A stretch of 32,000 nt of DNA from Pseudothioglobus sp. nBUS_23 (GCF_051201565.1 NZ_CP179200.1:390001-422000); one strand, 5' to 3'; shown: positions 10,677-30,554, numbered from the stretch's first letter. Numbers and translations are program-made. The notes: generated from the letters alone by a model not told the origin.

Positions 10677-11747
10677 ATGAATGAAAATAATTTTTGGAAA
10701 GGCAAGAGAGTTTTTTTAACTGGGCATACTGGATTTAAAGGAAGCTGGCTTTCTATTTGGCTTAACTCAATGGGGTGTATTGTTAGGGGTTATGCACTTC
10801 TCCCTCCAAGTTCTCCTTCTCTATATACTGCTGCAAAAGTTGAAGATTTGATAGATTCTCAAATTGGTGATATTAGGAACTATCATTTACTTTATGAAGC
10901 TATGAATAAATTCAATCCTGATATTGTTTTTCATATGGCTGCTCAATCTTTGGTAAGAAAATCATACTCAAACCCTATTGAGACATATGAAGTTAATATA
11001 ATTGGAACGGCCAATGTTTTAGAAGCTGCAAGAAGTTGTGAGAATTTAAAAGTAGTAATTAACATTACTACAGATAAATGTTACGAAAATGAAGATTTTG
11101 ATAAAAGCTTTAAAGAGACTGACCCAATGGGAGGATATGACCCTTACAGCTCAAGTAAGGGCTGTGCTGAAATAATAACATCAGCTTACAGGAGGTCTTT
11201 TTATAATGAGCTTGGTATTGGGCTCGCTTCTGCAAGAGCTGGCAATGTAATTGGTGGAGGTGATTGGGCCAAAGATCGTCTTATTCCTGATATCTTAAGA
11301 TCTTTTGAGGATAAAAAACCAGTTTTAATTCGAAGTCCAAACGCTACGAGACCTTGGCAGCATGTTCTCGAGCCTTTATCAGGGTATCTAAAATTGGCTA
11401 AAGAAATTTATTTTGACTCTTATTCGTTTTCTGAAGGATGGAATTTTGGTCCAAAAGATTCAGATATTAAAACCGTAGAATGGATAATTGATAAAATGAG
11501 TTCAAAGTGGCCTAATTCTTCTTGGAAAATTGACGATAATCCTAATCCTCATGAATCATCCTTTTTGAAATTAGATATTTCAAAAGCTAAATTAAAATTA
11601 GATTGGACGCCAACATGGCAGCTGAATTTTGCTTTAGAAAAAATTATTAATTGGCATTTTGATTGGTTAGAAAATAAGAATATGCAGGAAGTATGTATTG
11701 CAGAGATTAAAGAATATATGATGGAAATAAAACATGAAATCCGCTGA
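10677..11747 (+). CDS. rfbG: CDP-glucose 4,6-dehydratase
   Basis: The sequence FLTGHTGFKGSWLSIWL and a YSSSK catalytic motif are present, the length is 356 aa, and it lies directly after rfbF. Confidence 0.9.
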   Translation: MNENNFWKGKRVFLTGHTGFKGSWLSIWLNSMGCIVRGYALLPPSSPSLYTAAKVEDLIDSQIGDIRNYHLLYEAMNKFNPDIVFHMAAQSLVRKSYSNPIETYEVNIIGTANVLEAARSCENLKVVINITTDKCYENEDFDKSFKETDPMGGYDPYSSSKGCAEIITSAYRRSFYNELGIGLASARAGNVIGGGDWAKDRLIPDILRSFEDKKPVLIRSPNATRPWQHVLEPLSGYLKLAKEIYFDSYSFSEGWNFGPKDSDIKTVEWIIDKMSSKWPNSSWKIDDNPNPHESSFLKLDISKAKLKLDWTPTWQLNFALEKIINWHFDWLENKNMQEVCIAEIKEYMMEIKHEIR

Positions 11748-13050: not shown

Positions 13051-13059
13051 AGATTAGGT

Positions 13060-13758
13060 ATGAAAAATGTGCTAGTTTTTGGGGGTTCAGGTCAAATTGG
13101 ATCAACTATAGTAGAAAAATTTATTTCTAAGAGCTGGAATACTCTTTCAGTAGGGAGAAAAAAGATAATTTCTGAGTCATATTTATCTTGGGATCCTTTT
13201 CAAGTTATGCCAACTAAAGACTTTGAAAAATTATCTCAATTTGGAGTTTTTGATGCAGTTTGTTGGTCACAAGGCATGAATTTAAGTGATAACATTTTCA
13301 ACTACAAGAAAGATCTACATGAAGATATTTATAGGGCAAATGTTCTTTATATTCTAGAATCACTTAAATTTCTAATTAATAGTAATTTATTAAATAAACC
13401 TGCTAAATTTTGTGTGATAAGTTCTATTTGGCAAGATTTATCAAAGGAAAATAAGTTGTCTTATTCAATATCGAAAGCAGCTTTAAAAGGTTTGGTTTTA
13501 TCTTTAAGTAATGATATGGCAGAAGATGGACACTTAATTAATGCCGTCCTTCCAGGAGTTATTGATTCTCCTATGACTAATGCTAATCTTTCATCAACAC
13601 AAATTTCAAATGTTCGAAATGCATCTAAATTTAAGCGATTAGCGAGTTTAAAAGATGTGGCTAATTCTGTTTACTCTCTATGTTCTGAAGAAAATACAGG
13701 CATTACGGGTAATTTTGTAAAAATTGATTTGGGATTTTCAAATGTTCGAAACATTTGA
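13060..13758 (+). CDS. Classical short-chain dehydrogenase/reductase
   Basis: It has VFGGSGQIGSTI, the catalytic YSISKAALKGL, and NAVLPGVIDSPM, and is 232 aa long. Confidence 0.75.
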   Translation: MKNVLVFGGSGQIGSTIVEKFISKSWNTLSVGRKKIISESYLSWDPFQVMPTKDFEKLSQFGVFDAVCWSQGMNLSDNIFNYKKDLHEDIYRANVLYILESLKFLINSNLLNKPAKFCVISSIWQDLSKENKLSYSISKAALKGLVLSLSNDMAEDGHLINAVLPGVIDSPMTNANLSSTQISNVRNASKFKRLASLKDVANSVYSLCSEENTGITGNFVKIDLGFSNVRNI

Positions 13759-14812
13759 AGTAGAGTCCTCAATTAAAAACTACAAAGTTTTAATTGAAAA
13801 AGGATCGGTTCACAATTTTATTAATGATAAATCATTTTTTATAATAGATTCACATGTATATGATTTATGGCCTTCTATTAATATTAAGGAATGCATAAAA
13901 ATTGATGCAAAAGAAAGTAATAAAAGCTTAAAAATAGTATCAGAAGTAATTAAAAATTTAAAAGATTCAGGAGCTAATAGATCCAGTTCAATTCTAGCAA
14001 TAGGAGGTGGTATAACACAAGATCTTTCTACCTTTTGCGCATCTACTTTTATGAGAGGCATTAGCTGGGTATATGTTCCTACTACTTTATTAGGTATGAC
14101 CGACTCTTGCATTGGGGGTAAATCATCCATCAATGTAGGGAGGTACAAAAATATTATTGGAAACTACTATCCACCTGAAATAGTTGTTGTGGATACTAAT
14201 TTTTGTAAAACGTTGACCATTCAACAGATACTTGAGGGTCTCTTTGAGGCTGTTAAGATTTCATACGCACATTCTGAATTTAGATTTGAAAAGCATATTT
14301 CATATGTAAATCATAATCAAGATTTATATTGTTTAGACTTTGAAAAAATAGTTTTTAATAGCTTAATTTCAAAAAAAGAAATTATTGAAGAAGATGAATT
14401 CGATGAAGGTATTAGACTTTTGTTAAACTTTGGCCATACCTTTGGACACGCGCTTGAGGGCGCTAGTAGGTTTAAAATTAGTCACGGTGTTGCAGTAGGA
14501 TTGGGGATGATTGCAGCCTTTAATTTGTCTATCAGTTTAAATTTAATTCAAGAAGAGAATATTAAAGCTAGAAAATTAATTAATCATTTATATTATTTAT
14601 TAGAAATGGTTGAGGGTTTAAGTTATTTAGTTAATAATATTGATATGAAAGTTGCCTATGATAATTTTAAATCTGACAAAAAACACCTTAAAGGCGTTTT
14701 TTTTATGATTTTGTTTGATAATGAAGGCAAACTCATTAGACACAAGTTAAATAAAAGTGTCACAAATGAAATATTAATTATTAATTCTTTTGAGTCTCTT
14801 AAAACGATATGA
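13742..14812 (+). CDS. 3-dehydroquinate-synthase-like enzyme (sugar phosphate cyclase / DHQS fold)
   Basis: The motifs GGGITQDL, DSCIGGKSSIN, NFGHTFGHALE and SHGVAVGLGM match the DHQS nucleotide and metal ligands. I prefer the ATG at 13742; the ORF track starts at the TTG at 13724. Confidence 0.75.
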   Translation: MFETFEVESSIKNYKVLIEKGSVHNFINDKSFFIIDSHVYDLWPSINIKECIKIDAKESNKSLKIVSEVIKNLKDSGANRSSSILAIGGGITQDLSTFCASTFMRGISWVYVPTTLLGMTDSCIGGKSSINVGRYKNIIGNYYPPEIVVVDTNFCKTLTIQQILEGLFEAVKISYAHSEFRFEKHISYVNHNQDLYCLDFEKIVFNSLISKKEIIEEDEFDEGIRLLLNFGHTFGHALEGASRFKISHGVAVGLGMIAAFNLSISLNLIQEENIKARKLINHLYYLLEMVEGLSYLVNNIDMKVAYDNFKSDKKHLKGVFFMILFDNEGKLIRHKLNKSVTNEILIINSFESLKTI

Positions 14813-16575
14813 AATATAGTGATCAATTAGCTGAATGGCTTTTAGAAATGGGCTACACCCACTGCTTTTTTGTAAGTGGAGGTAATAGTATGCACCTAGT
14901 AGAAAGTTTCAGTAGAAAATTAGATTGTAGGGCAGTCATACATGAGGTTGCAGCTGGTATTGCTGCAGAATATTTTAATGAATCAAGTGAGGAAGGTAAG
15001 GCTTTAGCTCTTGTAACTGCTGGTCCTGGTATTACTAATATAATTTCAGCTATTGCGGGTGCTTATCTAGAAAGTCGAGAGTTGCTTGTCATTGGCGGAC
15101 AGGTTAAAACTTTTGATTTATCGTTAGGAAAGTTGCGCCAAAATGGCATTCAGGAAATTGATGGTGTAAGTATTGCGAGTTCAATTTGCAGTTCGTCAAC
15201 TACAATGACTCAAGCTTGGAATAAGGAAAAATTTGGAAAGTTTATTTGTAGCTCTGAAAATGGAAGAAAATCTCCAGTTTTTTTAGAGATACCACTTGAT
15301 ATTCAGGCTAAAAATGTTGACTTTACTAATAAAATTTATGAGCCAAAAGTTCATAACTTTAAATCAATAACTCAAAGTCAATTATTTAGATTAGTTAGCA
15401 GAATAAAGTCTTCTCAAAGGCCAATAATTATGATTGGTGGAGGCTTAAGTAGAGAGACAGCAACAGAAATACAAAATCTTTTTACCGATTCTTCTGTGCC
15501 CTTTGTAACCACCTGGAATGGGATGGATCGAATTGGATCAAATAATCCAAATTATGTGGGTCGACCAAATACATGGGGGCAAAGAAGTGCAAATGTACTT
15601 TTACAACAAGCTGATTTATTGGTTGCATTTGGAACACGATTAGGAATGCAACAGACTGGTTTTAATTGGCAAGAATTTATCCCAAATGGGAAAATTATAC
15701 AAATTGATATAGATAAAAATGAACTTGAAAAAGGACACCCCAAAATTGATCTTGGCCTAGAGTTGGATGCAAACGACACTATAATTAAGCTATTGAAATC
15801 GGAATTAGGGGATCATACTGTATGGTTAAAATTTTGTAAAAAAGTTAGAAACCTTTTGCCTCTTGTTGAAAACAGTACTCTTAATAACAGATCTGAGTTT
15901 ATTTCACCCCACTTGTTTGTTCAAAAACTTTCTCAAATAGCGTGTAAAGACGATATTGTCATTCCTTGTAGCAGTGGTGGAGCCTTTACGATAATGATGC
16001 AGGTTTTTGAGCAAAAATTTGGACAAAAAATTATTACCAATAAAGGCCTTGCTTCAATGGGCTATGGTCTTTCAGGAGCAATTGGCGCGTCAATAGCAAA
16101 TCCTAATAAAAGAGTTTTTTTAATAGAAGGTGATGGAAGTTTCTCTCAAAATCTTCAAGAGATTGGAACTGCAGCAATAAATAACTGTAATTTAAAGATT
16201 TTTATATTTGATGATGGGGGTTATGCCTCAATTAGAATGACTCAAAGAAACTACTTTAATGGAAGGTATGTTGGTTGTGATACTTTAACAGGCTTGGGTT
16301 TGCCTGACTGGAAAAAACTTTTTGAGGCTTGGAATGTTCCTGTAGTTAAAATTAGTGCTAAATCATTTAAAGAGAAATCAATTGAAGTTAATCTTGAAGA
16401 ACCTGGTTTTGCTGCGTTTATAATACCTATTGATCCAGAACAAACTTATTTACCAAAAATTACGAGTCAGCTTTCAGAGGCTAGAGGTATGATTTCGAAT
16501 CCTCTTCATCTTATGACTCCAGATATAGAAGAACCAATAAAATCAGAAGTTTTCAAATATATACTTAAGGAGTAA
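14809..16575 (+). CDS. Three-domain thiamine-diphosphate enzyme (acetolactate-synthase large-subunit fold; YerE-like candidate)
   Basis: At 588 aa, it has an N-terminal Pyr domain (VTAGPGITN) and a ThDP/Mg motif (GDGSFSQNLQEIGTAAINNCNLKIFIFDDGGY). No small regulatory subunit gene lies nearby. Confidence 0.8.
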   Translation: MKYSDQLAEWLLEMGYTHCFFVSGGNSMHLVESFSRKLDCRAVIHEVAAGIAAEYFNESSEEGKALALVTAGPGITNIISAIAGAYLESRELLVIGGQVKTFDLSLGKLRQNGIQEIDGVSIASSICSSSTTMTQAWNKEKFGKFICSSENGRKSPVFLEIPLDIQAKNVDFTNKIYEPKVHNFKSITQSQLFRLVSRIKSSQRPIIMIGGGLSRETATEIQNLFTDSSVPFVTTWNGMDRIGSNNPNYVGRPNTWGQRSANVLLQQADLLVAFGTRLGMQQTGFNWQEFIPNGKIIQIDIDKNELEKGHPKIDLGLELDANDTIIKLLKSELGDHTVWLKFCKKVRNLLPLVENSTLNNRSEFISPHLFVQKLSQIACKDDIVIPCSSGGAFTIMMQVFEQKFGQKIITNKGLASMGYGLSGAIGASIANPNKRVFLIEGDGSFSQNLQEIGTAAINNCNLKIFIFDDGGYASIRMTQRNYFNGRYVGCDTLTGLGLPDWKKLFEAWNVPVVKISAKSFKEKSIEVNLEEPGFAAFIIPIDPEQTYLPKITSQLSEARGMISNPLHLMTPDIEEPIKSEVFKYILKE

Positions 16576-16577
16576 AA

Positions 16578-17363
16578 GTGAACAAATTAGAAAAGGAAAT
16601 AATTGATGTTGTTAAGTGCTTGAAAAATGAGTATGGAGTTTTTGAAATAAAAGCAGAATTTGAGGCTGAAGGAAGTCGAATGGAAGAAATGATGAGGCTC
16701 AAAGATATTACAGGCCATGTCGGCCTTCCGATAATATTAAAAATTGGGGGTGTAGAAGCCGTGACAGATGTTTATAATGCATTAGCACTAGGTGTTAAAG
16801 GATGCATTGCACCAATGGCTGAAACTAAATATGCTCTATCAAAATTTACTGATTTAATTGATAATTTTGTTGCGCCAGATAATGCTTCTGATATTGAATT
16901 TGGAGCAAATATAGAAACAATAACTGCGTGTAATAATTTTAATGATATGCTTTCAATTTCGAATATTTCTAATTTATCAGGAATTACAATTGGGAGAGTT
17001 GATTTAGTTGGATCTATGGGATTAAGCAGAGATTCGATTAATACTTCAAATGAGGTGAAAAGTTTATGTAAGTCAGTATTTTCTTTAGCCAAAAACAATG
17101 GTTTCAAAACAGCTATGGGTGGAGGAATTGGAACAGACGCCTTTTCAGTAATAAGTGAAATGAATAGTGATAATCTAATTGATAAATATGAAACTAGAAA
17201 AGTAGTTTTTCCAGCTGAATCAGTTAAATATGGAGATAAATCAATACTTAAAGCAGTAGAATTTGAATTGCTATGGCTTAAGAGTAAAGAGCGATATTAT
17301 TCAAGAATCAAGTTAGAAGATAAAAGCAGGATACAAATGCTGGAAAAAAGACTTAATAATTAA
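16578..17363 (+). CDS. HpcH/HpaI aldolase / citrate-lyase-beta-like TIM-barrel protein
   Basis: A GTG start is preceded by aaggag (16567-16572). Aligned by eye, the family blocks are present: CIAPMAETKYAL, GANIET and ITIGRVDLVGSMGL. Confidence 0.5.
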   Translation: MNKLEKEIIDVVKCLKNEYGVFEIKAEFEAEGSRMEEMMRLKDITGHVGLPIILKIGGVEAVTDVYNALALGVKGCIAPMAETKYALSKFTDLIDNFVAPDNASDIEFGANIETITACNNFNDMLSISNISNLSGITIGRVDLVGSMGLSRDSINTSNEVKSLCKSVFSLAKNNGFKTAMGGGIGTDAFSVISEMNSDNLIDKYETRKVVFPAESVKYGDKSILKAVEFELLWLKSKERYYSRIKLEDKSRIQMLEKRLNN

Positions 17364-17377
17364 ACTATAATTTTGTT

Positions 17378-18349
17378 TTGTCTTCATTATTAATAATAGG
17401 TGGAACTGGTTTTTTTGGGAAATCTTTTCTTGATGCATATAAAAGAGGATTACTAGATAAGTGGAATATAAAAGAAATTATAATAATTTCACGCAATGTA
17501 AGAAGTTTTCAAGAAAATTATCCAGAACTTTGTAATTCATCAGTTCAATTTATTAATGAAGATATTGGTAAAGTAGATAGGTTGCCGTTTGCAGATTTTG
17601 TAATTCATGCTGCAGCTTCTACAGATGCTTCACGCTATAAAACACACAATAAACAAGAAAAAAAAAATATTATTAAGGGCACTCTTAATTATTGCCGACT
17701 TGCTACTAAATTTCATAAAGAGAGCAAAATTGTGTTTTGCAGTTCTGGTGCAGTTTATGGATATCAGCCAGAACATTCAAAGTATTTGGATGAAGATATG
17801 CCATTTGGAAACATTGAAGACCTTAATGAAATCAAAAAATCATATGCATATGCTAAAAGAGATGCAGAATTTGCAATTCAAAAATTAGGACAGTCGGGAC
17901 TTAAAGTTAGTATTGCAAGATGCTTTTCGTTTGTTGGTAAGTATTTGCCTAGAGGTCAACACTTCGCAATAGGAAATTTTATATCTGATGGATTAGCCAG
18001 AAGAGATATTATTGTAAAAGCCGATAGTAAAGTTTATAGAAGCTATATGTATGCAGATGATCTTGTTGAATGGCTTTTAACTTTGGCTGATGATGCTAAT
18101 ATAAATTGCCCAATATTTAATGTAGGATCAGATCAAGAGATTGAAATCAGAGACTTAGCACAAGTTGTTTCAAATTTTTTTAACGTCGGTGTTAAATATT
18201 TGAGTGCCATAAATAGTACTGAAATTGATCGTTATATACCCTCTATAGAAAAAGCTCAAAAACAGCTAGGATTAAAGGAAAAATTTGATATTAATAAGTC
18301 CATAATCAATACTGCAAGTAATTTTGATGATAGGCCTCTACAAAATTAA
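17378..18349 (+). CDS. NAD-dependent epimerase/dehydratase or ketoreductase (extended SDR)
   Basis: A TTG start is the only possibility, because there is an in-frame stop at 17357. It has LLIIGGTGFFGKS and YAYAK motifs and is 323 aa long. Confidence 0.75.
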   Translation: MSSLLIIGGTGFFGKSFLDAYKRGLLDKWNIKEIIIISRNVRSFQENYPELCNSSVQFINEDIGKVDRLPFADFVIHAAASTDASRYKTHNKQEKKNIIKGTLNYCRLATKFHKESKIVFCSSGAVYGYQPEHSKYLDEDMPFGNIEDLNEIKKSYAYAKRDAEFAIQKLGQSGLKVSIARCFSFVGKYLPRGQHFAIGNFISDGLARRDIIVKADSKVYRSYMYADDLVEWLLTLADDANINCPIFNVGSDQEIEIRDLAQVVSNFFNVGVKYLSAINSTEIDRYIPSIEKAQKQLGLKEKFDINKSIINTASNFDDRPLQN

Positions 18350-19534: not shown

Positions 19535-20463
19535 TGTTAAATTTATTACAAATAGTAATTTTATCTAGAGATCGGCCTAATTTCCTAAGCAAAACTATAG
19601 AGTCCGCAACTAATCTTAATGCATCTGATATATCTTATGAAATAATTATTTCAGATAATTCCGAATCAGATGATGTAAACAATCTATTCAAAGAAAACTA
19701 TTCTAAAAGCCATAAAATTTCATATAGAAGAAGGTTTCCAACGATTTCTTCAAGTAGCCATTATCAATTAGTAATTGAAGAGTTAAAGTCTGAGTATGCC
19801 GTAATTTTTCATGATGATGATATTTTTCATCCTGACTATTTGTTGAAAGTAAGTTCAATTTTATCAAATCAATCTTTTTCTGCTATTGGTTGCAATGCAC
19901 TAGTTTTTAAAAAGGAAATTGAAGATGGTTTTAAAAAAATGCATGATTTTAGTCAAATCAAAAAATTTAATAGAAAAAAAGATTTTATTAGACAATACTT
20001 AGTTGGAAATGGTGGTGTTGCGCCTTTTCCGGGGTATCTTTATAAGACTGAATATTTAAAAAAAATTTCATTTTTAGACTTACCATCCGGTAAGCACGCA
20101 GATGTTGCATTATTAGCATCACTAATTAATTATGGTGAAATTATATGGCTTGTTGAAACATTAATATACTACAGAGCGCATGTCGGTAGTGATAGTGCAT
20201 CTGAAGTTTTAGTAGATAGGTTGTCGTTATTGAGATACATGTTTTCTAATGGGATAAGCAGAAGTTCAAAATCAGTTTTTTTATTTAGATATTTTTATTG
20301 GTTTAACTGGCTAAGTCAAAAAGGTTTATCCACTAAAGATATTTCTAATTGGCGTTATCGTAAAGCTTTAAAATTTTTATTTTTTAGCGGCCCTAGATTT
20401 ATATTTTCCACGTATTTTATTAAAGTAATTCTAAAAAGAGTTAAAAATAAATTAACCAATTAA
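19534..20463 (+). CDS. Glycosyltransferase family 2
   Basis: The N-terminal GT-A pattern is present (IVILSRDRPNFLSKTIES...IIISDNSESDD, plus a DxD-type HDDDIF). Its start overlaps the previous stop (TAATG). Confidence 0.7.
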   Translation: MLNLLQIVILSRDRPNFLSKTIESATNLNASDISYEIIISDNSESDDVNNLFKENYSKSHKISYRRRFPTISSSSHYQLVIEELKSEYAVIFHDDDIFHPDYLLKVSSILSNQSFSAIGCNALVFKKEIEDGFKKMHDFSQIKKFNRKKDFIRQYLVGNGGVAPFPGYLYKTEYLKKISFLDLPSGKHADVALLASLINYGEIIWLVETLIYYRAHVGSDSASEVLVDRLSLLRYMFSNGISRSSKSVFLFRYFYWFNWLSQKGLSTKDISNWRYRKALKFLFFSGPRFIFSTYFIKVILKRVKNKLTN

Positions 20464-20505
20464 CTCACTAAAATAGACCATACAAAACTACTCCACAGTA
20501 ACTCA
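20452..20505. repeat. glmS-3'-end-like bipartite module, copy 1 (pseudo-att)
   Basis: It consists of ttaaccaat (20452-20460), 23 nt of spacer, and aaaactactccacagtaactca (20484-20505). The minus strand reads GTT ACT GTG GAG TAG TTTT, which is V-T-V-E-stop. Confidence 0.65.
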
Positions 20506-20897
20506 GAAGTATTGAGGACATTCTTGGAATAAGCAATGATTTGATAATATTTATATTACATTACCCTTAATTTCTTATAAACAACTTTTCCTTCATATCT
20601 TATGACAACTTACTTTTATTGAATTTACTATTTACTCCTAATCTTATTCACCTTTTAAAATAACTAATCATATAAGTAAATTTAAATTTTTATTATTAAT
20701 TCATTTTATGAATTTGTTTTTGTTATTTAAAAAAATTTTTAGTAATTATCAATTTTAGAATTACTGAAATTTAAATTTTAAAGTAATGGATAATTGACAT
20801 TATAAAATTATTTGATTTAAGAATTTTTTTTGGAGTTTTGCTGCTTTTTCAATATTATTTTGAGAAAGAATTTTATGTCTAAAATGGAGTTTAATTC

Positions 20898-23456
20898 ATG
20901 AAAATTGTTATTACTGGTGGGCTGGGATATATTGGGACAGAACTATGCAAGTTATATTCTGGAGAAGCCAGATTTAAAGAAATAATTGTAATTGATAATA
21001 TATTTGCATCCGAGAGGGTCTCACAATTAAGGAATTGGGGGATAAATTTCATTCATGGAGATATTCTTGACTTGCCTTTAATCAAAGAAGTCTTGAAAGA
21101 TTCTGATATTGTTTACCATTTAGCTGGAATCACTGATGTTGCATCAACAAAAACCGAAGCCAAAGAGGATAAAGAGCGGTTAATAGAAGAAGTTGGTATT
21201 ACTGGCACAAGAAATGTAATTAACTCAATGTCAAAAAATGCAAAATTAATTTTCCCTTCCACCCATGTTGTTTATGAAGGTTTAAAGGAAACTAAATTTG
21301 ATATTGTTGAAACTGAACCTCTTCTTCCTGTTCTTTCATATTCTACTGGGAAGGCTGAATCCGAGATAGATATTCAAAATTCAAAAGTAAATTATGTTAT
21401 CTTGAGGCTTGCAACTGTTTTTGGATATTCTGCTGCAGATACGATGCGAATAAACATTATGCCAAATTTGTTTTCTAAGATTGCCTCTCAAAATGGAACT
21501 ATTAGGCTTTTTTCTGGTGGAAAGCAACATAAAAGTTTAGTTTCGGTTTTTGATGTTGTCCGATCGATGAAGTTTATGGCAGAAAAGAATGACATTTCGA
21601 GAGAAGTTTTTCACTGTTCAAGTGATAATACTACAGTAAAGAAAGTTGCTGAGATTTGTAAAGAAATTAATAGTGAAGTTAAATTAATTGAGACTGATGA
21701 TGAGATCCCTAATTTAGGATATACAACATCAAACAAAAAAATTCTGTCTACTGGGTTTGATTTTAGATATCCTTTGAAGGAATCCCTAAAGGAAATGATT
21801 AAGCATTGGTCCAAGAAAAATCAATTTAATACTTTAGAGTTAATTCAAAAAGGACAGAAAGAGTTTATTGATGATAGGGGAAAGATAAGTAATTTTGAGC
21901 TAACTGAGCCAATAAATTTAATTGGCTATATTGAGTCAAAAGCAGGTACTGTGAGGGCAAATCATTATCATCCAATTCAAGAGCAAAAATGTTTGTTAAT
22001 TTCAGGACAATATATTAGTGTACTAAAAGACTTGTCTGATTCAAATTCTGTAATTGAGACAAATATCATTAATCCAGGAGACATAGCAGTTATACATCCT
22101 CATGTTGCACATACGATGGTTTTCCTAGAGGATTCTGTTTTTCTTAATCTCGTTAGAGGGGAAAGAGAGCATGAAAACTATGGAGTCACTCATACTATCT
22201 TTTACGAGCTTGTCAATGAAAGCTTTAGAAAGCAGATTGTTGATTATTACAAGGCTGAGTGTAGAGTTTGTGGAAGAAAAGACCTTAGAGAAGTAATTTC
22301 ACTGGGGTTGTCACCACTAGCAAATAGCTTATTAAAAGAAAAGAGTCAAGCTGAAACTTTATATCCATTAGAGTTGAACTCATGCCCAAACTGCTTTAAT
22401 TGCCAACTTTCATTTACGGTTCCAGCTAATGAAATGTTTGATGATTATCTTTATGTTTCTTCTACAAGTAAAGTTTTTAGAGATCATTTTTCAGAAATGG
22501 CAATTAAGTTCATTAAAGACTTTAAATTAGATGAAAAAAGTTTCGTTGTGGACATTGGCAGCAATGATGGAGTTTTTTTGGCTCCATTGAAAAATGCCGG
22601 TGTTAGTGTTTTAGGAGTTGACCCAGCAAAAAATTTAGCTGACTTAGCAAATTCAAAGGGTTTAGATACTATGCATGGTTATTTCAATAGCCAAATAGCT
22701 GATGAAATCATTTTGTTAAAAGGAAAGGCTGATATTGTAACTGCATTCAATGTTTTTGCTCATGCGGATGATTTGAAATCAATTGCAAAAAATGTTTTTA
22801 AAATCATGAAGAAAAACGGTGTTTTTATTATTGAAGTTCAATATTTTGCAGATACAATAAGAGACCTCACATTTGATAATATTTATCATGAACATGTTAA
22901 TTATTGGTCTGTTAATTCGCTGCAATTTTTTTGTAATAGTCTAAATTTAATTTTAGTGAAAATAGAGCATGTTGAAACTCATGGTGGCTCAATTAGGGCA
23001 TTTATATCTCAAAATGATAAGTTAATTGATAAAAGTGTTGAAGAATTCCTTACAGAAGAAAAAAAGCAAGATTTGCATTCTTTTTCAACCCTGAAAAAAT
23101 TTGCAACTAGAATTGGTGAATTAAAAAACTCAACTATAACCAAAATTAATCATCTGAAATCCCAAGGGAAAACAATCGTTGGCTATGGGTCTCCAGCAAA
23201 GGCTACTACTGTTCTCAATTATTATGGCATTGATAATGAGATTATTGACTATATTATTGAAGATAATGAATTAAAACATAACCTGTTTCTCCCTGGAATG
23301 AGAATACCAATCAAATCAAAGTCTGAAGCTTTGAGAAATCCTCCTGACTTCATATTAGTTTTAGCTTGGAATTTTTTAGAGGATATTAAGGCTAATAATC
23401 CTGAATTAATTCAGAAAGGAAGTAAATTTATTACTCTTAAGGATTTAAATTGGTAG
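20898..23456 (+). CDS. Tri-domain fusion: extended SDR + cupin (CapF/WxcM-like) + NDP-hexose C-methyltransferase (TylCIII/NovU type)
   Basis: Residues 1 to ~310 carry ITGGLGYIGTEL and YSTGK. Residues ~320-440 are a cupin (DDRGKISNF...RANHYH...HPHVAHTM). From residue ~450 there is a Cys4 zinc region (CRVCG...CPNCFNC), a SAM motif (VVDIGSNDGVF) and the C-methyltransferase C-terminal domain (IVGYGSPAKATTVLNYYGI). A GGAG Shine-Dalgarno lies 8 nt upstream of the ATG. Confidence 0.8.
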   Translation: MKIVITGGLGYIGTELCKLYSGEARFKEIIVIDNIFASERVSQLRNWGINFIHGDILDLPLIKEVLKDSDIVYHLAGITDVASTKTEAKEDKERLIEEVGITGTRNVINSMSKNAKLIFPSTHVVYEGLKETKFDIVETEPLLPVLSYSTGKAESEIDIQNSKVNYVILRLATVFGYSAADTMRINIMPNLFSKIASQNGTIRLFSGGKQHKSLVSVFDVVRSMKFMAEKNDISREVFHCSSDNTTVKKVAEICKEINSEVKLIETDDEIPNLGYTTSNKKILSTGFDFRYPLKESLKEMIKHWSKKNQFNTLELIQKGQKEFIDDRGKISNFELTEPINLIGYIESKAGTVRANHYHPIQEQKCLLISGQYISVLKDLSDSNSVIETNIINPGDIAVIHPHVAHTMVFLEDSVFLNLVRGEREHENYGVTHTIFYELVNESFRKQIVDYYKAECRVCGRKDLREVISLGLSPLANSLLKEKSQAETLYPLELNSCPNCFNCQLSFTVPANEMFDDYLYVSSTSKVFRDHFSEMAIKFIKDFKLDEKSFVVDIGSNDGVFLAPLKNAGVSVLGVDPAKNLADLANSKGLDTMHGYFNSQIADEIILLKGKADIVTAFNVFAHADDLKSIAKNVFKIMKKNGVFIIEVQYFADTIRDLTFDNIYHEHVNYWSVNSLQFFCNSLNLILVKIEHVETHGGSIRAFISQNDKLIDKSVEEFLTEEKKQDLHSFSTLKKFATRIGELKNSTITKINHLKSQGKTIVGYGSPAKATTVLNYYGIDNEIIDYIIEDNELKHNLFLPGMRIPIKSKSEALRNPPDFILVLAWNFLEDIKANNPELIQKGSKFITLKDLNW

Positions 23457-23472
23457 TCATCTCATTCCTTGC

Positions 23473-23537
23473 TTAACCAATGAAGAGATTTGAGATAGCT
23501 CAAAAGATTCCATGTAAAACTACTCAACAGTAGCAGA
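23473..23537. repeat. glmS-3'-end-like bipartite module, copy 2 (pseudo-att)
   Basis: It consists of ttaaccaat (23473-23481), 34 nt of spacer, and aaaactactcaacagtagcaga (23516-23537). Sixteen nt are identical to the real glmS end. The minus strand reads TCT GCT ACT GTT GAG TAG, which is S-A-T-V-E-stop. Confidence 0.7.
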
Positions 23538-23543
23538 CTGAAT

Positions 23544-23888
23544 TTGAAGGTACATCAAATACCTGAGATTATTCCATACCTCGAGTTTTCAATGGAGTTC
23601 CAATCCAACAAACTCATCTATCAAAAAGAATACACTAAACGACAACAAATCATTTATCTTCTTATTCATCATCTTCACGATACAGAAGGGTGGGGTTACA
23701 GAAAGATATCACAATGGTTGAATCAGAGTGGAATAAAGACCTATAGAGGGAAGAACTGGTTCACTTCATCTGTTATCTCAGTCTTAAAGAGAAAACACGA
23801 AAGAGACCTAATTAATGAACAGATCAGAAATCAACATTTCCCAAGCAAGGTCTCAAAGTTTGAGGTGAATTACTATGTTTTTGATTGA
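23544..23888 (+). CDS. Small protein consisting only of a 'Recombinase' domain (probable remnant of a large serine recombinase)
   Basis: The sequence QQIIYLLIHHLHDTEGWGYRKISQWLNQSGIKTYRGKNWFTSSVISVLKRK follows the recombinase-domain pattern (helper-protein-like HTH ... G..W....V..iL.n). There is no room upstream for a catalytic resolvase domain. The start is ambiguous between the TTG at 23544 and the ATG at 23592. Confidence 0.5.
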   Translation: MKVHQIPEIIPYLEFSMEFQSNKLIYQKEYTKRQQIIYLLIHHLHDTEGWGYRKISQWLNQSGIKTYRGKNWFTSSVISVLKRKHERDLINEQIRNQHFPSKVSKFEVNYYVFD

Positions 23889-23931
23889 ATAGAATAGTAC
23901 AATAAATTCATAGTTCAAAAAGAATGATTTT

Positions 23932-24219
23932 ATGGGTTATGAAATAGGATTTTTATTGGGGTCAATGGTCGACCCTTCAATGCTAATTGGTTCTTTATTA
24001 ATTGGAATCTTTGTTAAGTCATACTCAAAAGTTATTTTCTTTGCTATTTTGTATACAATAGTTATTGAAGTAATTCTGCTCTACGTAATGAGCAGACTTG
24101 AAATATATCATACGATTTTTGTATATAGATTTATTGGAACAATAATAGAGGCAAGTATATTTTTCGGTCTTAAATCTATATTTAAAAAAAAGGACAAAAA
24201 TACTAACGAATTATTATGA
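23932..24219 (+). CDS. Small integral membrane protein (about three predicted transmembrane helices), function unknown
   Basis: The 95-aa protein has three long hydrophobic stretches and a lysine-rich tail. Its stop overlaps the next start (ATGA). Confidence 0.55.
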   Translation: MGYEIGFLLGSMVDPSMLIGSLLIGIFVKSYSKVIFFAILYTIVIEVILLYVMSRLEIYHTIFVYRFIGTIIEASIFFGLKSIFKKKDKNTNELL

Positions 24220-24956
24220 AAAAACTACTCATACTTCTATTCTCATTGCTAATTTCCTTTAACTCTTATGGAAAATGGTCTCATATAGTCTCTAATGATA
24301 GTGATGGAGGTTCTAGGTTTTATGTTGACAATGAAACAATAATAGAAAAAGATAATCAAATTTTTTATTGGGAGTTACATGATTATTCTTCTTATCTGTA
24401 TGTATCAGATGATGATACTACACCAATATGGAGTGTTGCTGTTTATAAGCAGTTAGATTGTTCATCAAAACGAATGAAGTATATATCAGTTAAATATTAT
24501 CAGCAAAATATGGGTCAAAAATTCTATGAGTCAGAAGATGCTTCTCACATGGGATGGCAATATGAACCTCCAGGAAGCACTGGATATATCCTTGCTAATT
24601 ATGTTTGTGAATTATTTAGTCAAAAGTCTGAGTGGTTACCTATTGGTGAAAACAATGGGAATAGTGCTTATATAGGAGAAACCAATGTCACTGATGAGTT
24701 TGTATATTTCTGGCATATGATTGATTTTGATAAACCCCTTGAGTCAGGTTCAAAGAGTGGAAAAACATATAAACAGGGAGATTGTAAAACAAAACGTACT
24801 AAAGTTTTATCTTATAATTTTTATGGACTTCCGATGGGTATAGGAGATTATAAAACTGAGAATGTCACAAATCCTGAGTGGACTGATTTAGATCCAAATA
24901 GTGCTTTGGGAGGTTTCTTTGAAATGTTATGTGACTATATTGAAAATAATAGTTAA
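24216..24956 (+). CDS. Secreted protein with two tandem copies of a surface-adhesin-protein-E-like domain
   Basis: The Sec signal is MKKLLILLFSLLISFNSYG. Two internally related halves follow (W..I....G..FYVD...FYWEL...DC.SKR.K.. and W..IG...N.AYIGE...VYFWHMIDF...DCKTKRTK..), each with a Cys pair. Confidence 0.55.
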   Translation: MKKLLILLFSLLISFNSYGKWSHIVSNDSDGGSRFYVDNETIIEKDNQIFYWELHDYSSYLYVSDDDTTPIWSVAVYKQLDCSSKRMKYISVKYYQQNMGQKFYESEDASHMGWQYEPPGSTGYILANYVCELFSQKSEWLPIGENNGNSAYIGETNVTDEFVYFWHMIDFDKPLESGSKSGKTYKQGDCKTKRTKVLSYNFYGLPMGIGDYKTENVTNPEWTDLDPNSALGGFFEMLCDYIENNS

Positions 24957-24971
24957 TATGAAAAAAAATAA

Positions 24972-26534
24972 ATGAAAAAACTACTCATTTTTCTATTCTC
25001 TATTCTGATCTCCTTTAATTCTTATGGTGAAGTAGAACTAGATTTTTCATTGGACACTTTTTGTGAGGAATCACCCAAAGTACAAGTAAGAAATAATCTT
25101 TACTTTCTTCCAAATACAGAAAAACCATACTCTGGAAAAACACTTTGTGTTTATTCAAGTAATGGTCAATACTTCAGTCAAGGAAATATTAAGAAAGGAC
25201 TTTGGGATGGAAAAATTACTTTTTGGTTTGAAAATGGTCAGAAATGGAAAGAGGAAAATTGGAGTAACGGAGTTATCAATGGAAAGTGGTTAATTTGGCA
25301 TAAAAATGGTCAGTTAGAATCAGAGTTAAATTTCAAAGACAACAATGAAGATGGTAAACAGACTTCTTGGTATGAAGATGGTCAGATAAGATGGGACTCT
25401 AATTACAAAAATGGAATGGCAGATGGTTTATTCACTTGGTGGCATGAAGATGGTCAGAAAAAATCTGAGATAACATACAAAGACAATAGTTTAGTTAATC
25501 AAACTCAATATGCTTATAACAATAATTCACAGATACTTTCTATAAAAAATTACTCTGGACTACCTAATGATGAGAACCTAGAAAGTGAGACTGATTACTC
25601 ATACTATGCTAATGGTCAAATACAAAGTGAAATAACCTGGAAAAATGACATTGAGGATGGTAAGACTATTGGTTGGTATGAGGATGGTAAAAAAAGTTAT
25701 GAGTACACAAATCAAGAAGGGAAGTTGGAAGGAAAATGGTTAGAATGGAATGAAAAAGGTCATCTAATTAAAGAAAACATCTATGAAAATGATATTTTAA
25801 TTAGTGAAACCAAAGTTAAATTTTATTATTATGATAATGGTCAAATAGAAACAGAGATTACTTATTTAAATGGTAAAGAAGATGGAATAAGTAAATACTA
25901 TTATGAAGATGGTTTACTAGGTCAAGAGTCGAGTTACAAGAATGGCAAACTTCATGGTAAATCTACAAGTTGGTATCCAAATGGTCAGATAGAGTATGAA
26001 GAGTATTGGAAAGATGATAATCCTGATGGAAATTGGACTCAGTGGAATAAAAACGGTGAAAAACTGTCAGAGGGAAATTTCAAAGATGGGAATGGTTACT
26101 TTCTTGGGTTGTACGAAAACAAACAAAAATACTATGATTTTATTTTAAGAGATAGTCGTCTAACAAGCACTTGGTGGTATGAGAATGGTCAAAAACAGAA
26201 AGAAAGAAGTTGGAATAAAGATTCTAACCTAGATGGCAAATGGACTGAGTGGGATGAGGATGGTCTGACAACTTTAATAAAAAATTACAAAGATGGAACT
26301 TTAGTTGTCGAAACTGGATACTTATATTATGAAAATGGTCAAAAATCACAAGAAAACATTTACAAAGATGATGTTGAAATTAAAACTGAGTGGGATGAAA
26401 CTGGTCAGATAAGAACAGAGGAGCATTACAAAGATGGAAAGTATGATGGTAAGGTGACTGGATGGGATGAAAATGGTCAGATATATTCAGAGTCAAATTG
26501 GAAAGACGGTGAATGCATCAGTGGAGACTGTTAA
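24972..26534 (+). CDS. Secreted MORN-variant (YwqK-type) repeat protein
   Basis: The signal peptide is MKKLLIFLFSILISFNSYG. About 20 degenerate repeats of the W(Y/H)E(N/D)GQ(K/I)..E..(Y/W)K(D/N)G..(D/H)G type follow. Confidence 0.7.
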   Translation: MKKLLIFLFSILISFNSYGEVELDFSLDTFCEESPKVQVRNNLYFLPNTEKPYSGKTLCVYSSNGQYFSQGNIKKGLWDGKITFWFENGQKWKEENWSNGVINGKWLIWHKNGQLESELNFKDNNEDGKQTSWYEDGQIRWDSNYKNGMADGLFTWWHEDGQKKSEITYKDNSLVNQTQYAYNNNSQILSIKNYSGLPNDENLESETDYSYYANGQIQSEITWKNDIEDGKTIGWYEDGKKSYEYTNQEGKLEGKWLEWNEKGHLIKENIYENDILISETKVKFYYYDNGQIETEITYLNGKEDGISKYYYEDGLLGQESSYKNGKLHGKSTSWYPNGQIEYEEYWKDDNPDGNWTQWNKNGEKLSEGNFKDGNGYFLGLYENKQKYYDFILRDSRLTSTWWYENGQKQKERSWNKDSNLDGKWTEWDEDGLTTLIKNYKDGTLVVETGYLYYENGQKSQENIYKDDVEIKTEWDETGQIRTEEHYKDGKYDGKVTGWDENGQIYSESNWKDGECISGDC

Positions 26535-26588
26535 TTAACCAATTTCACCAATTTTAATGTACAACCAAAACTACTCAACAGTTACTGA
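26535..26588. repeat. Bipartite module copy 3: the authentic glmS stop region plus its downstream flank
   Basis: It consists of ttaaccaat (26535-26543), 23 nt of spacer, and aaaactactcaacagttactga (26567-26588). The minus strand reads TCA GTA ACT GTT GAG TAG, the real GlmS C-terminus S-V-T-V-E-stop. Confidence 0.75.
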
Positions 26589-28418
26589 TTTGGCTAAATT
26601 TCTTGGCTTGTCAACATCAGCTTCTCTAGACAAAGCAACATGATAGCTAAGTAATTGAAGAGGTATTGTAAAAATAATTGGGGCTGAAATTCTTCCAAGG
26701 TTTGAAGTAATTGGAATGACTTTCATTGAATCCATAGATTGAACTTTGGAGTTTTCATCTTCGAAAACTAACATCTTAGAGCCTCTTGACTTAACTTCTT
26801 GTAGATTCGATTTTAATTTTTCTAACAACTCATCATTTGGAGCAATTGCTATCACTGGCATATTTTTATCAATAAGTGCAATTGGGCCATGTTTCAATTC
26901 CCCTGCTGGATAAGCTTCGGCATGAATATAACTAATTTCTTTTAGTTTTAGTGCGCCCTCCATTGCAATAGCATACATAGTTCCTCTTCCTAAAAATAAA
27001 GCGCTGTTTTTATTTGTAAAGCTTTTAGCTAGTTGTTTTATCTGAGTTTCTTGAAGTAGAGCTTCATTAATAAGTCCAGGCAATTTTTTTAAACCATTAA
27101 CAATTTCTGACTCTTGCCTTCTACTGATATAGCCTTTTAATTTGCCAATCGAGCACATCAATAATGCTAAAGAAACTAACTGAGTAGTAAAAGCTTTAGT
27201 ACTAGCCACTCCAATTTCTGGACCAGCATGTGTTAAGAATGTTAAATCAGACAATCTAGTTAGGCTTGATTCTGCTGAGTTACTAATACAAAGAGACTTT
27301 AATGTGTTATTAATTTTTTTAGCAGCTTTCAGAGCCTCTAATGTATCTGCAGTTTCTCCACTTTGTGACAATGTTACAAAAAGAGTGTTATCTAAAAGAA
27401 TAGGTCGACGATATCGGTATTCACTAGCAATTTCAACATGACATGGAATTTTTGCAATGTCTTCAATCCAGTATTTTGCAACAAGTCCTGCATTGTAACT
27501 AGTTCCACAAGCAGCAATTTGAATTTGATCTATTGATCTAAAGATTTCATCTGCCTTATGACCAAAAGATGAAGAAATAACAGAATCATTAGTAATTCTT
27601 GATTCTAATGTATCTCTTATTGCTTGAGGTTGTTCAAAAATCTCTTTTTGCATGAAGTGATTAAAATTACCCTTATCAACCTGGCCAGCTTTAAGTTTGG
27701 ATTTTTGGACTGGACGATTCACTAATTTTCCATCCAAATCATAAATAGTAACTTTATCTAATTTAACTTCAGCAATATCACCTTCCTCAAGAAAGATAAA
27801 TTTGTTTGTTTTGGACAATAGGGCCATTTGATCTGAAGCAATATAGTTTCCATTTTCACTAATTCCAATTAATAAAGGAGAGCCTTTTCTTGCAGCAATT
27901 ATTTGATCTGGGTATTTTGATGAAATAACTCCAATCCCATACGAACCTTCAAAAGATTTAACTGCTTTCTGAACTGATTCTACAAGAGAAGAACCTAACT
28001 GCATTTCTGAATCAATTGAGTGCGCAATTACTTCTGTATCAGTTTCAGATTTGAATTCATAGCCTTGTTTTATTTGAATATTTTTTAATTCAAGATAATT
28101 CTCAATAATGCCATTATGAACTACACTGACAGTATTTTTTGATATATGCGGGTGAGCATTAAGGCTTGATGGTTCTCCATGAGTAGCCCATCTAGTATGA
28201 GCTATACCAATCTTTCCATTGATTTCTTTACTTCTAGATTTTAAGTTCATTTCTAGATTGCTAACTTTTCCAACTGATCTAGCTCGTTCAAATGAATTTT
28301 GTTTAGAAAGAACAATTAGGCCAGATGAATCATAGCCTCGATACTCTAAACGATTTAAACCTTCTAAAAGAAGCGGGGTAATATTTTGATCTGTAACACC
28401 GCCAACTATACCGCACAT
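26571..28418 (-). CDS. glmS: Glutamine--fructose-6-phosphate aminotransferase (isomerizing)
   Basis: It has the MCGIVG N-terminal nucleophile, two SIS domains, and the universally conserved C-terminus PRNLAKSVTVE, and is 615 aa long. Confidence 0.95.
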   Translation of the reverse strand: MCGIVGGVTDQNITPLLLEGLNRLEYRGYDSSGLIVLSKQNSFERARSVGKVSNLEMNLKSRSKEINGKIGIAHTRWATHGEPSSLNAHPHISKNTVSVVHNGIIENYLELKNIQIKQGYEFKSETDTEVIAHSIDSEMQLGSSLVESVQKAVKSFEGSYGIGVISSKYPDQIIAARKGSPLLIGISENGNYIASDQMALLSKTNKFIFLEEGDIAEVKLDKVTIYDLDGKLVNRPVQKSKLKAGQVDKGNFNHFMQKEIFEQPQAIRDTLESRITNDSVISSSFGHKADEIFRSIDQIQIAACGTSYNAGLVAKYWIEDIAKIPCHVEIASEYRYRRPILLDNTLFVTLSQSGETADTLEALKAAKKINNTLKSLCISNSAESSLTRLSDLTFLTHAGPEIGVASTKAFTTQLVSLALLMCSIGKLKGYISRRQESEIVNGLKKLPGLINEALLQETQIKQLAKSFTNKNSALFLGRGTMYAIAMEGALKLKEISYIHAEAYPAGELKHGPIALIDKNMPVIAIAPNDELLEKLKSNLQEVKSRGSKMLVFEDENSKVQSMDSMKVIPITSNLGRISAPIIFTIPLQLLSYHVALSREADVDKPRNLAKSVTVE

Positions 28419-30039: not shown

Positions 30040-30243
30040 GCTAAAATCATTCAAATAGGCAATTCACAGGGTATCAGAATACCTAAGCCACTTATTGCAC
30101 TGGCTAATCTTGAGGGCAAAGAGCTTGAATATGTTGTGATGGATAGTGGTCTACTGATTACTCCAGAAAAAAAAGTTCGAGTGGGTTGGGAAAATGATAC
30201 TGATAATCTGAGCGTTGAATGGGAGTGGAGTAAGACCCCATGA
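30037..30243 (+). CDS. mazE: AbrB/MazE/SpoVT-fold antitoxin
   Basis: The sequence IIQIGNSQGIRIPKPLI is the swapped-hairpin antitoxin motif. The protein is 68 aa, and its stop overlaps the toxin start (ATGA). Confidence 0.75.
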   Translation: MAKIIQIGNSQGIRIPKPLIALANLEGKELEYVVMDSGLLITPEKKVRVGWENDTDNLSVEWEWSKTP

Positions 30244-30554
30244 GGCGCTTTGAAGTCTGGCTCATTATGAAAAATCCAGAATTTGGGCGTGTAGTTGATA
30301 ATCTTGGTCTGTGCACCATAGTCACTCCAGATGAGTTGAATAAACTGCCTAGTCTAATAGTTGCCCCTATGACTACATCATTTGAGTCAATACCCAGTCG
30401 AGTCGAATGCATTTTTGAAGGGGCAAAAGGATTCATCATGATTGATCAAATTAGAACGATAGAAAAATTATGCTTTATCAAAAAATTAGGAGAGCTTGAA
30501 AATGACGTTCAAATAAATTTATGTGATCGCTTTCAAGAGTTTTTTGCTTACTAA
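30240..30554 (+). CDS. mazF: PemK/MazF-family toxin (divergent)
   Basis: The sequences IVTPDELN...LIVAPMTTS...PSRV...IMIDQIRTIEK...IKKLGEL follow the MazF/PemK pattern. The protein is 104 aa and is coupled to the upstream antitoxin. Confidence 0.7.
   Translation: MRRFEVWLIMKNPEFGRVVDNLGLCTIVTPDELNKLPSLIVAPMTTSFESIPSRVECIFEGAKGFIMIDQIRTIEKLCFIKKLGELENDVQINLCDRFQEFFAY

Follow-up and report, generated by a model that had tools for sequence, protein, structure and literature searches.

The gene and its three domains

A stretch of 32,000 nucleotides from Pseudothioglobus sp. nBUS_23 (GCF_051201565.1, NZ_CP179200.1:390001-422000), hereafter the window, was used for the analysis, and positions are counted from its first letter. 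The gene under study is an open reading frame (ORF) at 20898..23456 on the plus strand, which starts with ATG, has GGAG ~10 nt 5' of the start codon and runs for 852 amino acids (aa) without interruption. An earlier sequence-only reading of this DNA had described it as a single ORF fusing a short-chain dehydrogenase/reductase (SDR), a cupin and a sugar C-methyltransferase. The ORF listing, Pfam and the layout of homologues bear this out, and all motifs reported at that time were found. One intact gene encodes three sugar-modifying enzyme domains in a single polypeptide.

Analysis of the protein revealed an extended SDR domain at aa 1-310 (20898..21827), identified by Pfam and by sequence and fold matches, followed by a cupin beta-barrel at aa ~314-440 (21837..22217), identified by a family profile, two structure models and fold neighbours. 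The C-methyltransferase comprises a Cys4 zinc knuckle (22260..22439; PF08421; C455, C458, C496 and C499; from Pfam and the alignment), a class I S-adenosylmethionine (SAM) methyltransferase core (22521..22925; DIGSNDG, H622, Y663, E665 and H666; from Pfam and alignment with TcaB9) and a C-terminal domain (22977..23435; PF08484, 156 bits; from Pfam and fold). All of these lie on the plus strand. The domain junctions at ~21830 and ~22240 agree with those of the earlier note. The Pfam matches are Epimerase (PF01370; aa 3-232, E 1e-26), Methyltransf_13 (aa 455-514, 61.5 bits, cutoff 31.3), Methyltransf_23 (PF13489; aa 542-676, E 2.4e-16) and Methyltransf_14 (aa 694-846, 156 bits, cutoff 23.5). The Epimerase match and the three C-methyltransferase parts all exceed the curated Pfam cutoffs; the cupin was recognised by profile and fold, with PF14667 below threshold. 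No model in the NCBIfam scan of the fusion scored above its cutoff, and hence the NCBI naming of the protein is generic only.

The motifs occur at GGLGYIG (aa 7-13) and YSTGK (148-152) in the SDR, RANHYH (353-358) and HPHVAHTM (400-407) in the cupin, CRVCG (455-459) and CPNCFNC (496-502) in the zinc knuckle, DIGSNDG (552-558) in the SAM core, and GYGSPAKATTVLNYYGI (762-778) and LPGMRIPI (798-805) in the C-terminal domain. The AlphaFold model of the fusion has a mean predicted local distance difference test (pLDDT) score of 85.3, and all three domains are confident. Residue invariance was judged in a family alignment of 31 sequences, this copy included. The catalytic residues that were checked are all present in the 852-aa protein and invariant across this alignment.

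The N-terminal SDR domain

Glycines G7, G10 and G13 and the triad T122/Y148/K152 are invariant, as is D33 at the end of beta-2, a NAD-type feature. Residues S121-T122-H123-V124-V125-Y126 ('STHVVY') stand where 4,6-dehydratases have Asp-Glu (TDE, RmlB) or Asp-Lys (SDK, CDP type), and TIGR01181 gives 77 bits against a cutoff of 365. Assignment of the domain as a 4,6-dehydratase was ruled out because the acid/base pair is missing, and for the same reason the SDR could not itself make a 4-keto-6-deoxy sugar. The closest structure is 6vo6 (Cj1427), with E 2.7e-22, 27-28% identity and a template modelling (TM) score of 0.85. The next matches are UDP-hexose C4-epimerases, a decarboxylase and 4,6-dehydratases; RmlD-type reductases match weakly (~1e-7 to 1e-8). 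Overall, these features predict a non-dehydratase, NAD-type extended SDR.

The sequence-only reading had likened the SDR and cupin to bifunctional CapF (Cap5F). CapF/WbjC likewise has an N-terminal SDR and a C-terminal cupin in one chain, but no methyltransferase is present in CapF. The shared domain order and a distant kinship of the cupins stand, and the rest of the likeness does not: CapF appears neither among the SDR sequence matches listed (60 of 72) nor among the 50 best fold matches of the full-length model, and NF047837 (CapF/WbjC) gives 17.3 bits against a cutoff of 500, so that neither this model nor PF14667 reaches its cutoff. The SDR therefore does not appear CapF-like, and the analogy probably holds for architecture only.

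The cupin domain

The cupin is the weakest of the three domains at the sequence level. PF14667 matched it with 17.7-21.1 bits (E 0.004; cutoff 28.7), and sub-threshold matches to this family occurred in 15 of 16 family members; Cupin_2 was matched by 13/16, and weak matches were found to PF00908 (2/16) and PF05523 (3/16). When a profile of the 16 members was used, the best solved relative was Cap5F/CapF, a distant one (E 4e-4), in which ...GNHWHHTKNEKFLVVSGK... aligned with ...ANHYHPIQEQKCLLISGQ... of the fusion. The domain is an all-beta barrel in both structure models, and the cupin-only model has a pLDDT of 84.

The metal-cupin signature G-x5-H356-x-H358-x3-E362 ... H405 is present with its four ligands invariant. 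The His-rich strands had been read earlier as metal or active-site strands; this holds for H356, H358 and H405 (plus E362), the only invariant residues among them, but not for H400 and H402, which are private to this copy (family consensus xPNVAH). The cupin-only Foldseek neighbours are near-exclusively cupins working on nucleoside diphosphate (NDP)-4-keto sugars. The best matches are the 3,4-ketoisomerases FdtA, QdtA, FdtD and WlaRA (E 2e-7 to 2e-6); the neighbours also include the 3,5-epimerases RmlC, WbcA, DdahB and MlghB, and CapF is at rank 25. The E-values of epimerase and ketoisomerase neighbours are similar and too close for choosing between them, and the first His of the H-x-H pair is conserved. 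Profile and models together predict that the middle domain is a cupin of the NDP-4-keto-sugar class.

The C-methyltransferase module

The C-methyltransferase (aa 455-846) matched MtmC (4rv9, annotated as D-mycarose 3-C-methyltransferase) with E 1e-76, TcaB9 with E 4e-67 and KijD1 with E ~1e-65. Identity to the TylC3/MtmC/TcaB9/KijD1 enzymes is 30-34%, and the AlphaFold model superposes on MtmC, TcaB9 and KijD1 with TM scores of 0.90-0.94 and root-mean-square deviations of 1.6-1.9 A. Chains of TcaB9 mutants in the PDB served as position markers for mapping the active site. TcaB9 Y76, H181, Y222, E224 and H225 correspond to Y517, H622, Y663, E665 and H666 in the fusion, and these five residues are invariant in 31/31 sequences. 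The Cys4 site is present, with C455 invariant and C458, C496 and C499 at least 90% conserved. The earlier claim of a complete unit is upheld for the Cys4 site, the SAM core and PF08484. The unit is complete and of the TylC3/TcaB9 type, a class acting on 4-keto sugars, and it looks catalytically competent.

The TylC3/MtmC/TcaB9/KijD1 3-C-methyltransferases have the identical three-part layout of Cys4 knuckle, SAM core and C-terminal domain. They are stand-alone proteins of ~410 aa from actinomycete antibiotic pathways and use dTDP-sugar substrates, whereas here the unit makes up the C-terminal half of a protein 852 aa long, encoded in marine and candidate-phylum bacteria at surface-glycan loci.

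A one-gene segment at the glmS 3' end

The fusion follows a ~20-kb plus-strand polysaccharide cluster. It is the sole gene between two repeat copies, as the sequence-only reading had noted in describing a cassette bounded by att-like repeats. The repeats at 20470-20500 and 23502-23532 are imperfect direct repeats (31 nt, 81% identical), and three copies of a 17-nt core are present in the window (the third at 26567-26583) against 0.02 expected by chance. Copy 1 (20450..20503, plus strand) is a degenerate glmS 3' end with its downstream flank and forms the left edge of a composite island, directly after the stop codon of a GT2 (glycosyltransferase family 2) gene. Copy 2 (23502..23532, plus strand) parts the fusion segment from a second segment. 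Copy 3 (26533..26586, plus strand) holds the genuine glmS 3' end (...SVTVE*, minus strand) with its downstream flank. The target gene, glmS, whose 3' end is duplicated, lies at 26571..28418 on the minus strand. Copies 2 and 3 share an exact 16-nt core, and copies 1 and 3 align over ~54 nt including the glmS downstream flank. The repeats are thus real, but rather than generic att sites they are duplicated glmS 3' ends. The arrangement is most simply read as the product of two site-specific insertions, in tandem, at the 3' end of glmS.

In the first segment, an AT-rich leader of ~400 nt precedes the fusion gene. The second (23544-26534) contains a recombinase fragment, a small hydrophobic membrane ORF of 95 aa, a lipoprotein-like Adhesin_E protein (246 aa) and a MORN_2-repeat protein (520 aa). 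The recombinase ORF (23544..23888, plus strand, 114 aa) is truncated, matches PF07508 over 39 residues (aa 46-84) and adjoins repeat copy 2. No intact integrase was found in the island, this 114-aa fragment being its only recombinase trace.

Tn7, through attTn7, and glmS-linked islands insert at the glmS 3' end. Here, likewise, foreign DNA lies directly 3' of glmS, bounded by glmS-derived direct repeats. This island differs from Tn7 in carrying no Tn7 genes, in having a serine-recombinase-type fragment as its sole recombinase trace and in its two tandem segments. DNA similarity to the closest relatives (74-83%) ends at the ORF ends or within ~20 nt, and the att core had no match in 87 other loci; placement as a single gene is therefore particular to this genome. 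This copy shows the fusion moving as a one-gene unit into a glmS insertion hot spot.

Within the spacer at 20501-20897 (~400 nt, GC ~0.26) there are short repeats, both direct and inverted; AAATTTAAATTT, for instance, occurs twice, 77 nt apart. A promoter and terminator scan of 20300-24000 gave 17 promoter-like sites against 18.7 expected and zero terminators. The Adhesin_E and MORN_2 proteins have near-identical N-terminal signal sequences, MKKLLI(L/F)LFS(L/I)LISFNSYG.

Distribution and architecture variants

Homologues were searched among 5.8 billion proteins. Among the best 120 clusters, 113 are 840-880 aa in length with 60-86% identity, 100% coverage and a collinear layout. Their sources are assemblies from JGI, ENA, NCBI, Logan and TARA, with Methylophilales and Patescibacteria among those that are named. 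A scan of reference genomes, one per GTDB species, found 314 stretches encoding a relative of the fusion, of which the best 80 loci were analysed. All 80 are full-length or nearly so with collinear architecture, and complete genomes are among them. The majority belong to Pelagibacteraceae (SAR11); the other hosts are Patescibacteria, Peribacteria, Absconditabacterales, Actinomarina, one gammaproteobacterium and one metagenome-assembled genome (MAG) of Methanobacterium, a notable archaeal host. The Methanobacterium copy (L012:7995-11189) is called as a 1065-aa ORF with a GT17-like (glycosyltransferase family 17) ORF beginning 8 nt away, and may be a four-domain version or interrupted by a frameshift.

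The fusion had been taken to be rare, and these counts contradict that view: the layout is abundant in databases under a generic name, and each domain comes from a known family. It is common, yet apparently uncharacterised. A literature search, with partial coverage of subscription journals, found no paper describing a characterised fusion and no biochemical or genetic study of one. The three-step chemistry is already known from separate enzymes.

Clustering at 50% identity places nearly the entire family in one representative, P0121, and the family is therefore strongly conserved. Comparison of the nearest 150 representatives at this level showed that 114 are 360-460 aa, a stand-alone size, and 27 exceed 500 aa and are multi-domain. 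The earlier statement that such C-methyltransferases are normally stand-alone is thus roughly correct, with the longer proteins as exceptions. SDR and C-methyltransferase occur together in P0124 and P0131 (727 and 768 aa). P0127 (879 aa), a distant variant, has a 4,6-dehydratase-like SDR with the cupin and C-methyltransferase; P0139 (561 aa) consists of cupin and C-methyltransferase, and P0134 (752 aa) has an uncharacterised N-terminal region before these two domains. GT17 is fused at the C-terminus in P0122 (1162 aa) and at the N-terminus in P0096 (1157 aa). At locus L088 the parts form a split operon of GT4, SDR+cupin (P0126, 452 aa), GT17, a GalE-like SDR and a stand-alone C-methyltransferase. 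This locus confirmed the stand-alone SDR+cupin P0126 as a complete gene, and its GalE-like SDR (SSSSVYG motif) is a non-dehydratase. The family is therefore combinatorial. Across these layouts, cupin plus C-methyltransferase is recognised as its recurring core, with a varying SDR partner and a recurring GT17 partner.

Antibiotics and the lipopolysaccharide of a few pathogens are the main known sources of C-methyl-branched sugars. Given how abundant the family is in SAR11, SUP05-type gammaproteobacteria, Actinomarina and candidate-phylum bacteria, the most numerous cells of the ocean may commonly display such sugars; surface glycans shape susceptibility to phages and grazers.

Genomic context in other genomes

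ORFs were called and clustered across the 80 reference loci within +-8 kb of the fusion. A GT17-like gene (PF04724) lies within 1.5 kb of the fusion in 40/80 loci, and GT2 occupies the GT17 position in nine more. At the SAR11 loci inspected the two genes are divergently transcribed with a spacing of ~67-69 nt, for example L017:3454-4344 (-) for the GT17-like gene and L017:4411-6957 (+) for the fusion. The link to GT17 is threefold: as a neighbour in these 40 loci, fused at either end in P0122 and P0096, and in the split operon (L088:3200-3991). This tight link is newly observed here and offers a route toward the acceptor glycan. Analysis of ~40 SAR11 genomes revealed the order tig, clpP, clpX, lon, [GT17], [fusion], [zinc-ribbon protein], nuoA-D; the lon-nuoA site is a housekeeping neighbourhood rather than a polysaccharide cluster. 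The closest relatives (78-86% identity) are found inside ordinary polysaccharide clusters.

Where a second SDR gene is present, it is frequently a genuine dehydratase. In the Patescibacteria loci L007 (the same contig region as L005) and L009, an RmlB-like gene with STDEVY (TIGR01181 312-332 bits) is located downstream of the fusion; it overlaps the fusion end in L005/L007 and lies ~1 kb downstream in L009. A GalU-like nucleotidyltransferase is upstream of the fusion in L007, and in three SAR11 loci an RmlB that passes the curated cutoff lies within 8 kb of the fusion. Homologues of the window's rfbF, rfbG and galU are rare near the fusion in other loci, and no general link to a CDP pathway is therefore apparent.

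Two loci contain further enzymes beside the fusion. In Methylophilales (L003:6644-8827) a FAD_binding_6 ferredoxin-reductase-like protein and a 510-aa B12-binding radical SAM enzyme are encoded two genes 5' of the fusion, a pair that may carry out a second, radical-type sugar alkylation or deoxygenation in that cluster. In Patescibacteria (L005:9432-9959 and L006:213-740) a 175-aa CPDase of the 2',3'-cyclic phosphodiesterase family stands between the nucleotidyltransferase and the fusion.

Proposed function and alternative explanations

We propose, with a probability of roughly 0.5, that the fusion is a trifunctional nucleotide-sugar enzyme finishing a C-methyl-branched deoxysugar for a surface glycan, with an external 4,6-dehydratase as supplier. 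The three domains would act sequentially on one NDP-4-keto sugar. A separate 4,6-dehydratase would first provide an NDP-4-keto-6-deoxyhexose. The TylC3/TcaB9-type module would then deprotonate the carbon beside the 4-keto group and methylate it from SAM, as its conserved residues suggest, most likely at C3. By analogy with CapF and RmlC, the metal-type cupin would epimerise C3 or C5, beside the keto group, and the N-terminal SDR would reduce C4 with NAD(P)H. The resulting NDP-6-deoxy-C-methylhexose would pass to a glycosyltransferase. A product resembling virenose or mycarose, as the sequence-only reading had suggested, is possible, and the pathway logic of that reading fits, since all three domain types act on NDP-4-keto sugars. 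Glyco-engineering would gain a compact tool from one polypeptide that performs these final three steps.

TylC3/TylK/TylC2 and NovW/NovU/NovS form the ends of the mycarose and noviose pathways. These pathway ends and the one proposed for virenose use a like trio of C-methyltransferase, epimerase and 4-ketoreductase on an NDP-4-keto-6-deoxyhexose. There the enzymes are separate polypeptides with RmlC-type epimerases, whereas here they are fused and the cupin is of the CapF type with a metal motif. CapF performs C3-epimerisation followed by C4-reduction and has the same SDR-then-cupin order as the fusion (PMC3699295). The route proposed for Coxiella virenose has these same steps carried out by separate enzymes (PMC3539893). 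The proposal is also supported by the dehydratase genes beside the fusion in Patescibacteria, by the RmlB genes of the three SAR11 loci, by the placing of the closest relatives in polysaccharide clusters and by the dehydratase-like SDR of P0127.

The fusion arrived alone in its cassette and would therefore use a 4-keto intermediate already made by the host, for example CDP-4-keto-6-deoxyglucose. The nearest possible supplier of an NDP-4-keto-6-deoxyhexose in the window is the pair of glucose-1-phosphate cytidylyltransferase (rfbF, 9900-10670, plus strand; TIGR02623 462.6 bits, cutoff 300) and CDP-glucose 4,6-dehydratase (rfbG, 10677-11747, plus strand; TIGR02622 485.5 bits, cutoff 278), which might feed the fusion. 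Candidates for the nucleotide carrier include CDP, available next door, and dTDP, as dTDP-type dehydratases accompany the gene elsewhere; GT17 enzymes typically use UDP-GlcNAc.

Several observations weigh against this proposal. The solved C-methyltransferases use dTDP-sugars, yet no dTDP-glucose pathway was found in the window. Within +-8 kb, 64/80 loci have no second SDR gene (16/80 have one) and 77/80 have no nucleotidyltransferase (3/80 have one). In ~40 SAR11 genomes the fusion is accompanied only by a GT17-like glycosyltransferase between lon and nuoA, and the 8-kb contig of L088 holds two non-dehydratase SDRs and zero dehydratases. The SDR is also nearer to NAD+-retaining oxidisers (Cj1427, C4-epimerases) than to any solved 4-ketoreductase, and D33 predicts NAD, not NADPH, which sugar 4-ketoreductases usually prefer.

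The main rival explanation is a self-contained, redox-neutral C-methylation in which NDP-hexose and SAM give NDP-C-methylhexose and S-adenosylhomocysteine without 6-deoxygenation, which we consider possible but rather doubtful. A tightly held NAD+ would oxidise C4, the C-methyltransferase and cupin would edit the sugar, and the retained NADH would re-reduce it in a ping-pong cycle, so that the fusion alone would convert an ordinary NDP-hexose. Joined in one chain, the domains would hold the labile intermediate close to the reduced cofactor. The SDR is closest to Cj1427 in both sequence and fold, its next matches transiently oxidise C4 with retained NAD+, and the NAD-type D33 is invariant; however, 27-28% identity to Cj1427 is too low for transfer of function. 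Cj1427 is a 'ping-pong dehydrogenase' in the title of the paper describing it, and it frees GDP-4-keto-heptose and takes alpha-ketoglutarate as second substrate (PMC10680097). The C. jejuni heptose set to which this nearest SDR structure belongs, together with the cupin fold neighbours DdahB and MlghB, shares the logic of making a 4-keto sugar, editing the neighbouring carbons and then reducing it. It consists of separate proteins acting on GDP-heptose (cupin C3/C5-epimerases and NADPH C4-reductases) without C-methylation, and oxidation and reduction are performed by two SDRs (PMC10680097), whereas the fusion has one. The context is divided in the same way. The fusion is alone in its cassette here, a glycosyltransferase is its sole functional partner in half of the reference loci with neither dehydratase nor nucleotidyltransferase nearby, GT17 is fused to it in P0122 and P0096, and P0127 has an enzyme generating 4-keto sugars in the SDR position. 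Against this, dehydratase genes adjoin the fusion in the Patescibacteria loci, overlapping it in one, and the dehydratases of SAR11 may sit elsewhere in the genome. We are also unaware of any multi-domain enzyme in which a keto-sugar moves from one active site to another and then returns. Such a cycle would explain the single-gene cassette, the two-gene lon-nuoA module of ~40 SAR11 genomes and the variants with fused GT17. It is unlikely, though conceivable, that one fusion and one glycosyltransferase (GT17) suffice for a C-methyl-branched, non-deoxy surface sugar.

Two other explanations concern the cupin and the gene itself. If the cupin were a 3,4-ketoisomerase, the keto group would move, the methylation site or the stereochemistry would depart from that of mycarose or virenose, and the SDR would reduce C3 or C4. 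The best cupin-only fold matches (FdtA, QdtA, FdtD and WlaRA), the correspondence of H356/H358 to the H49/H51 pair of FdtA, which is mutated according to PDB entry titles, and the PF05523 matches in 3/16 members argue for this. It is nevertheless improbable: the best sequence relative, CapF, is an epimerase, RmlC-type epimerases are nearly equal in fold score, and the solved C-methyltransferases of this family act beside the 4-keto group. To our knowledge, FdtA-type isomerases do not carry the complete metal motif of 3-His + Glu. An assembly chimera, a frameshift artefact or a decaying pseudogene might be suspected from the location in an island remnant beside a truncated recombinase and from the AT-rich 5' spacer, which has no convincing promoter or terminator signal. 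The chance of this is negligible. The identical collinear layout in 113/120 top clusters from independent assemblies and in 80/80 best reference loci, complete genomes included, effectively refutes an assembly artefact; this conservation across hundreds of independent assemblies also answers the concern of the sequence-only reading about the domain junctions, and does so better than the read coverage it had asked for. The structure prediction proposed with that reading is confident over all three domains, and the family-invariant residues are all present in this copy, by construction of the alignment. What keeps the fusion worth an experiment is its spread in SAR11, the GT17 link and the question of its mechanism.

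Other sugar pathways and features of the window

The cluster preceding the fusion contains a complete bacillosamine-type block at 4664-8934, with a PglC-like phosphoglycosyl transferase, a PglD-like acetyltransferase, a DegT (PglE-like) aminotransferase and a PglF-like membrane dehydratase of 626 aa. The galU gene of the cluster is on the minus strand. In the CDP-hexose branch, glucose-1-phosphate cytidylyltransferase, CDP-glucose 4,6-dehydratase and RfbH each score above cutoff. The region 3' of rfbF/rfbG (11734-18349) encodes RfbH (E1 3-dehydrase, 737 bits), a short SDR, an AroB-related protein matching the TIGR04425 'sugar phosphate phospholyase' below cutoff, an acetolactate-synthase-like thiamine diphosphate enzyme (588 aa), an HpcH-like aldolase and a further SDR. 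This unusual part of the branch showed no E3-type reductase. The yersiniose-type pathway (YerE) leads to a two-carbon-branched 3,6-dideoxyhexose. By analogy, the 11734-18349 branch resembles this logic, and the locus may make two different branched sugars. No GT17-like gene was found in the window by tblastn. Among window ORFs of at least 90 aa, no antitoxin was identified for a MazF/PemK toxin ORF at 30240-30554 (+), which overlaps a 93-aa ORF on the opposite strand (30158-30439).

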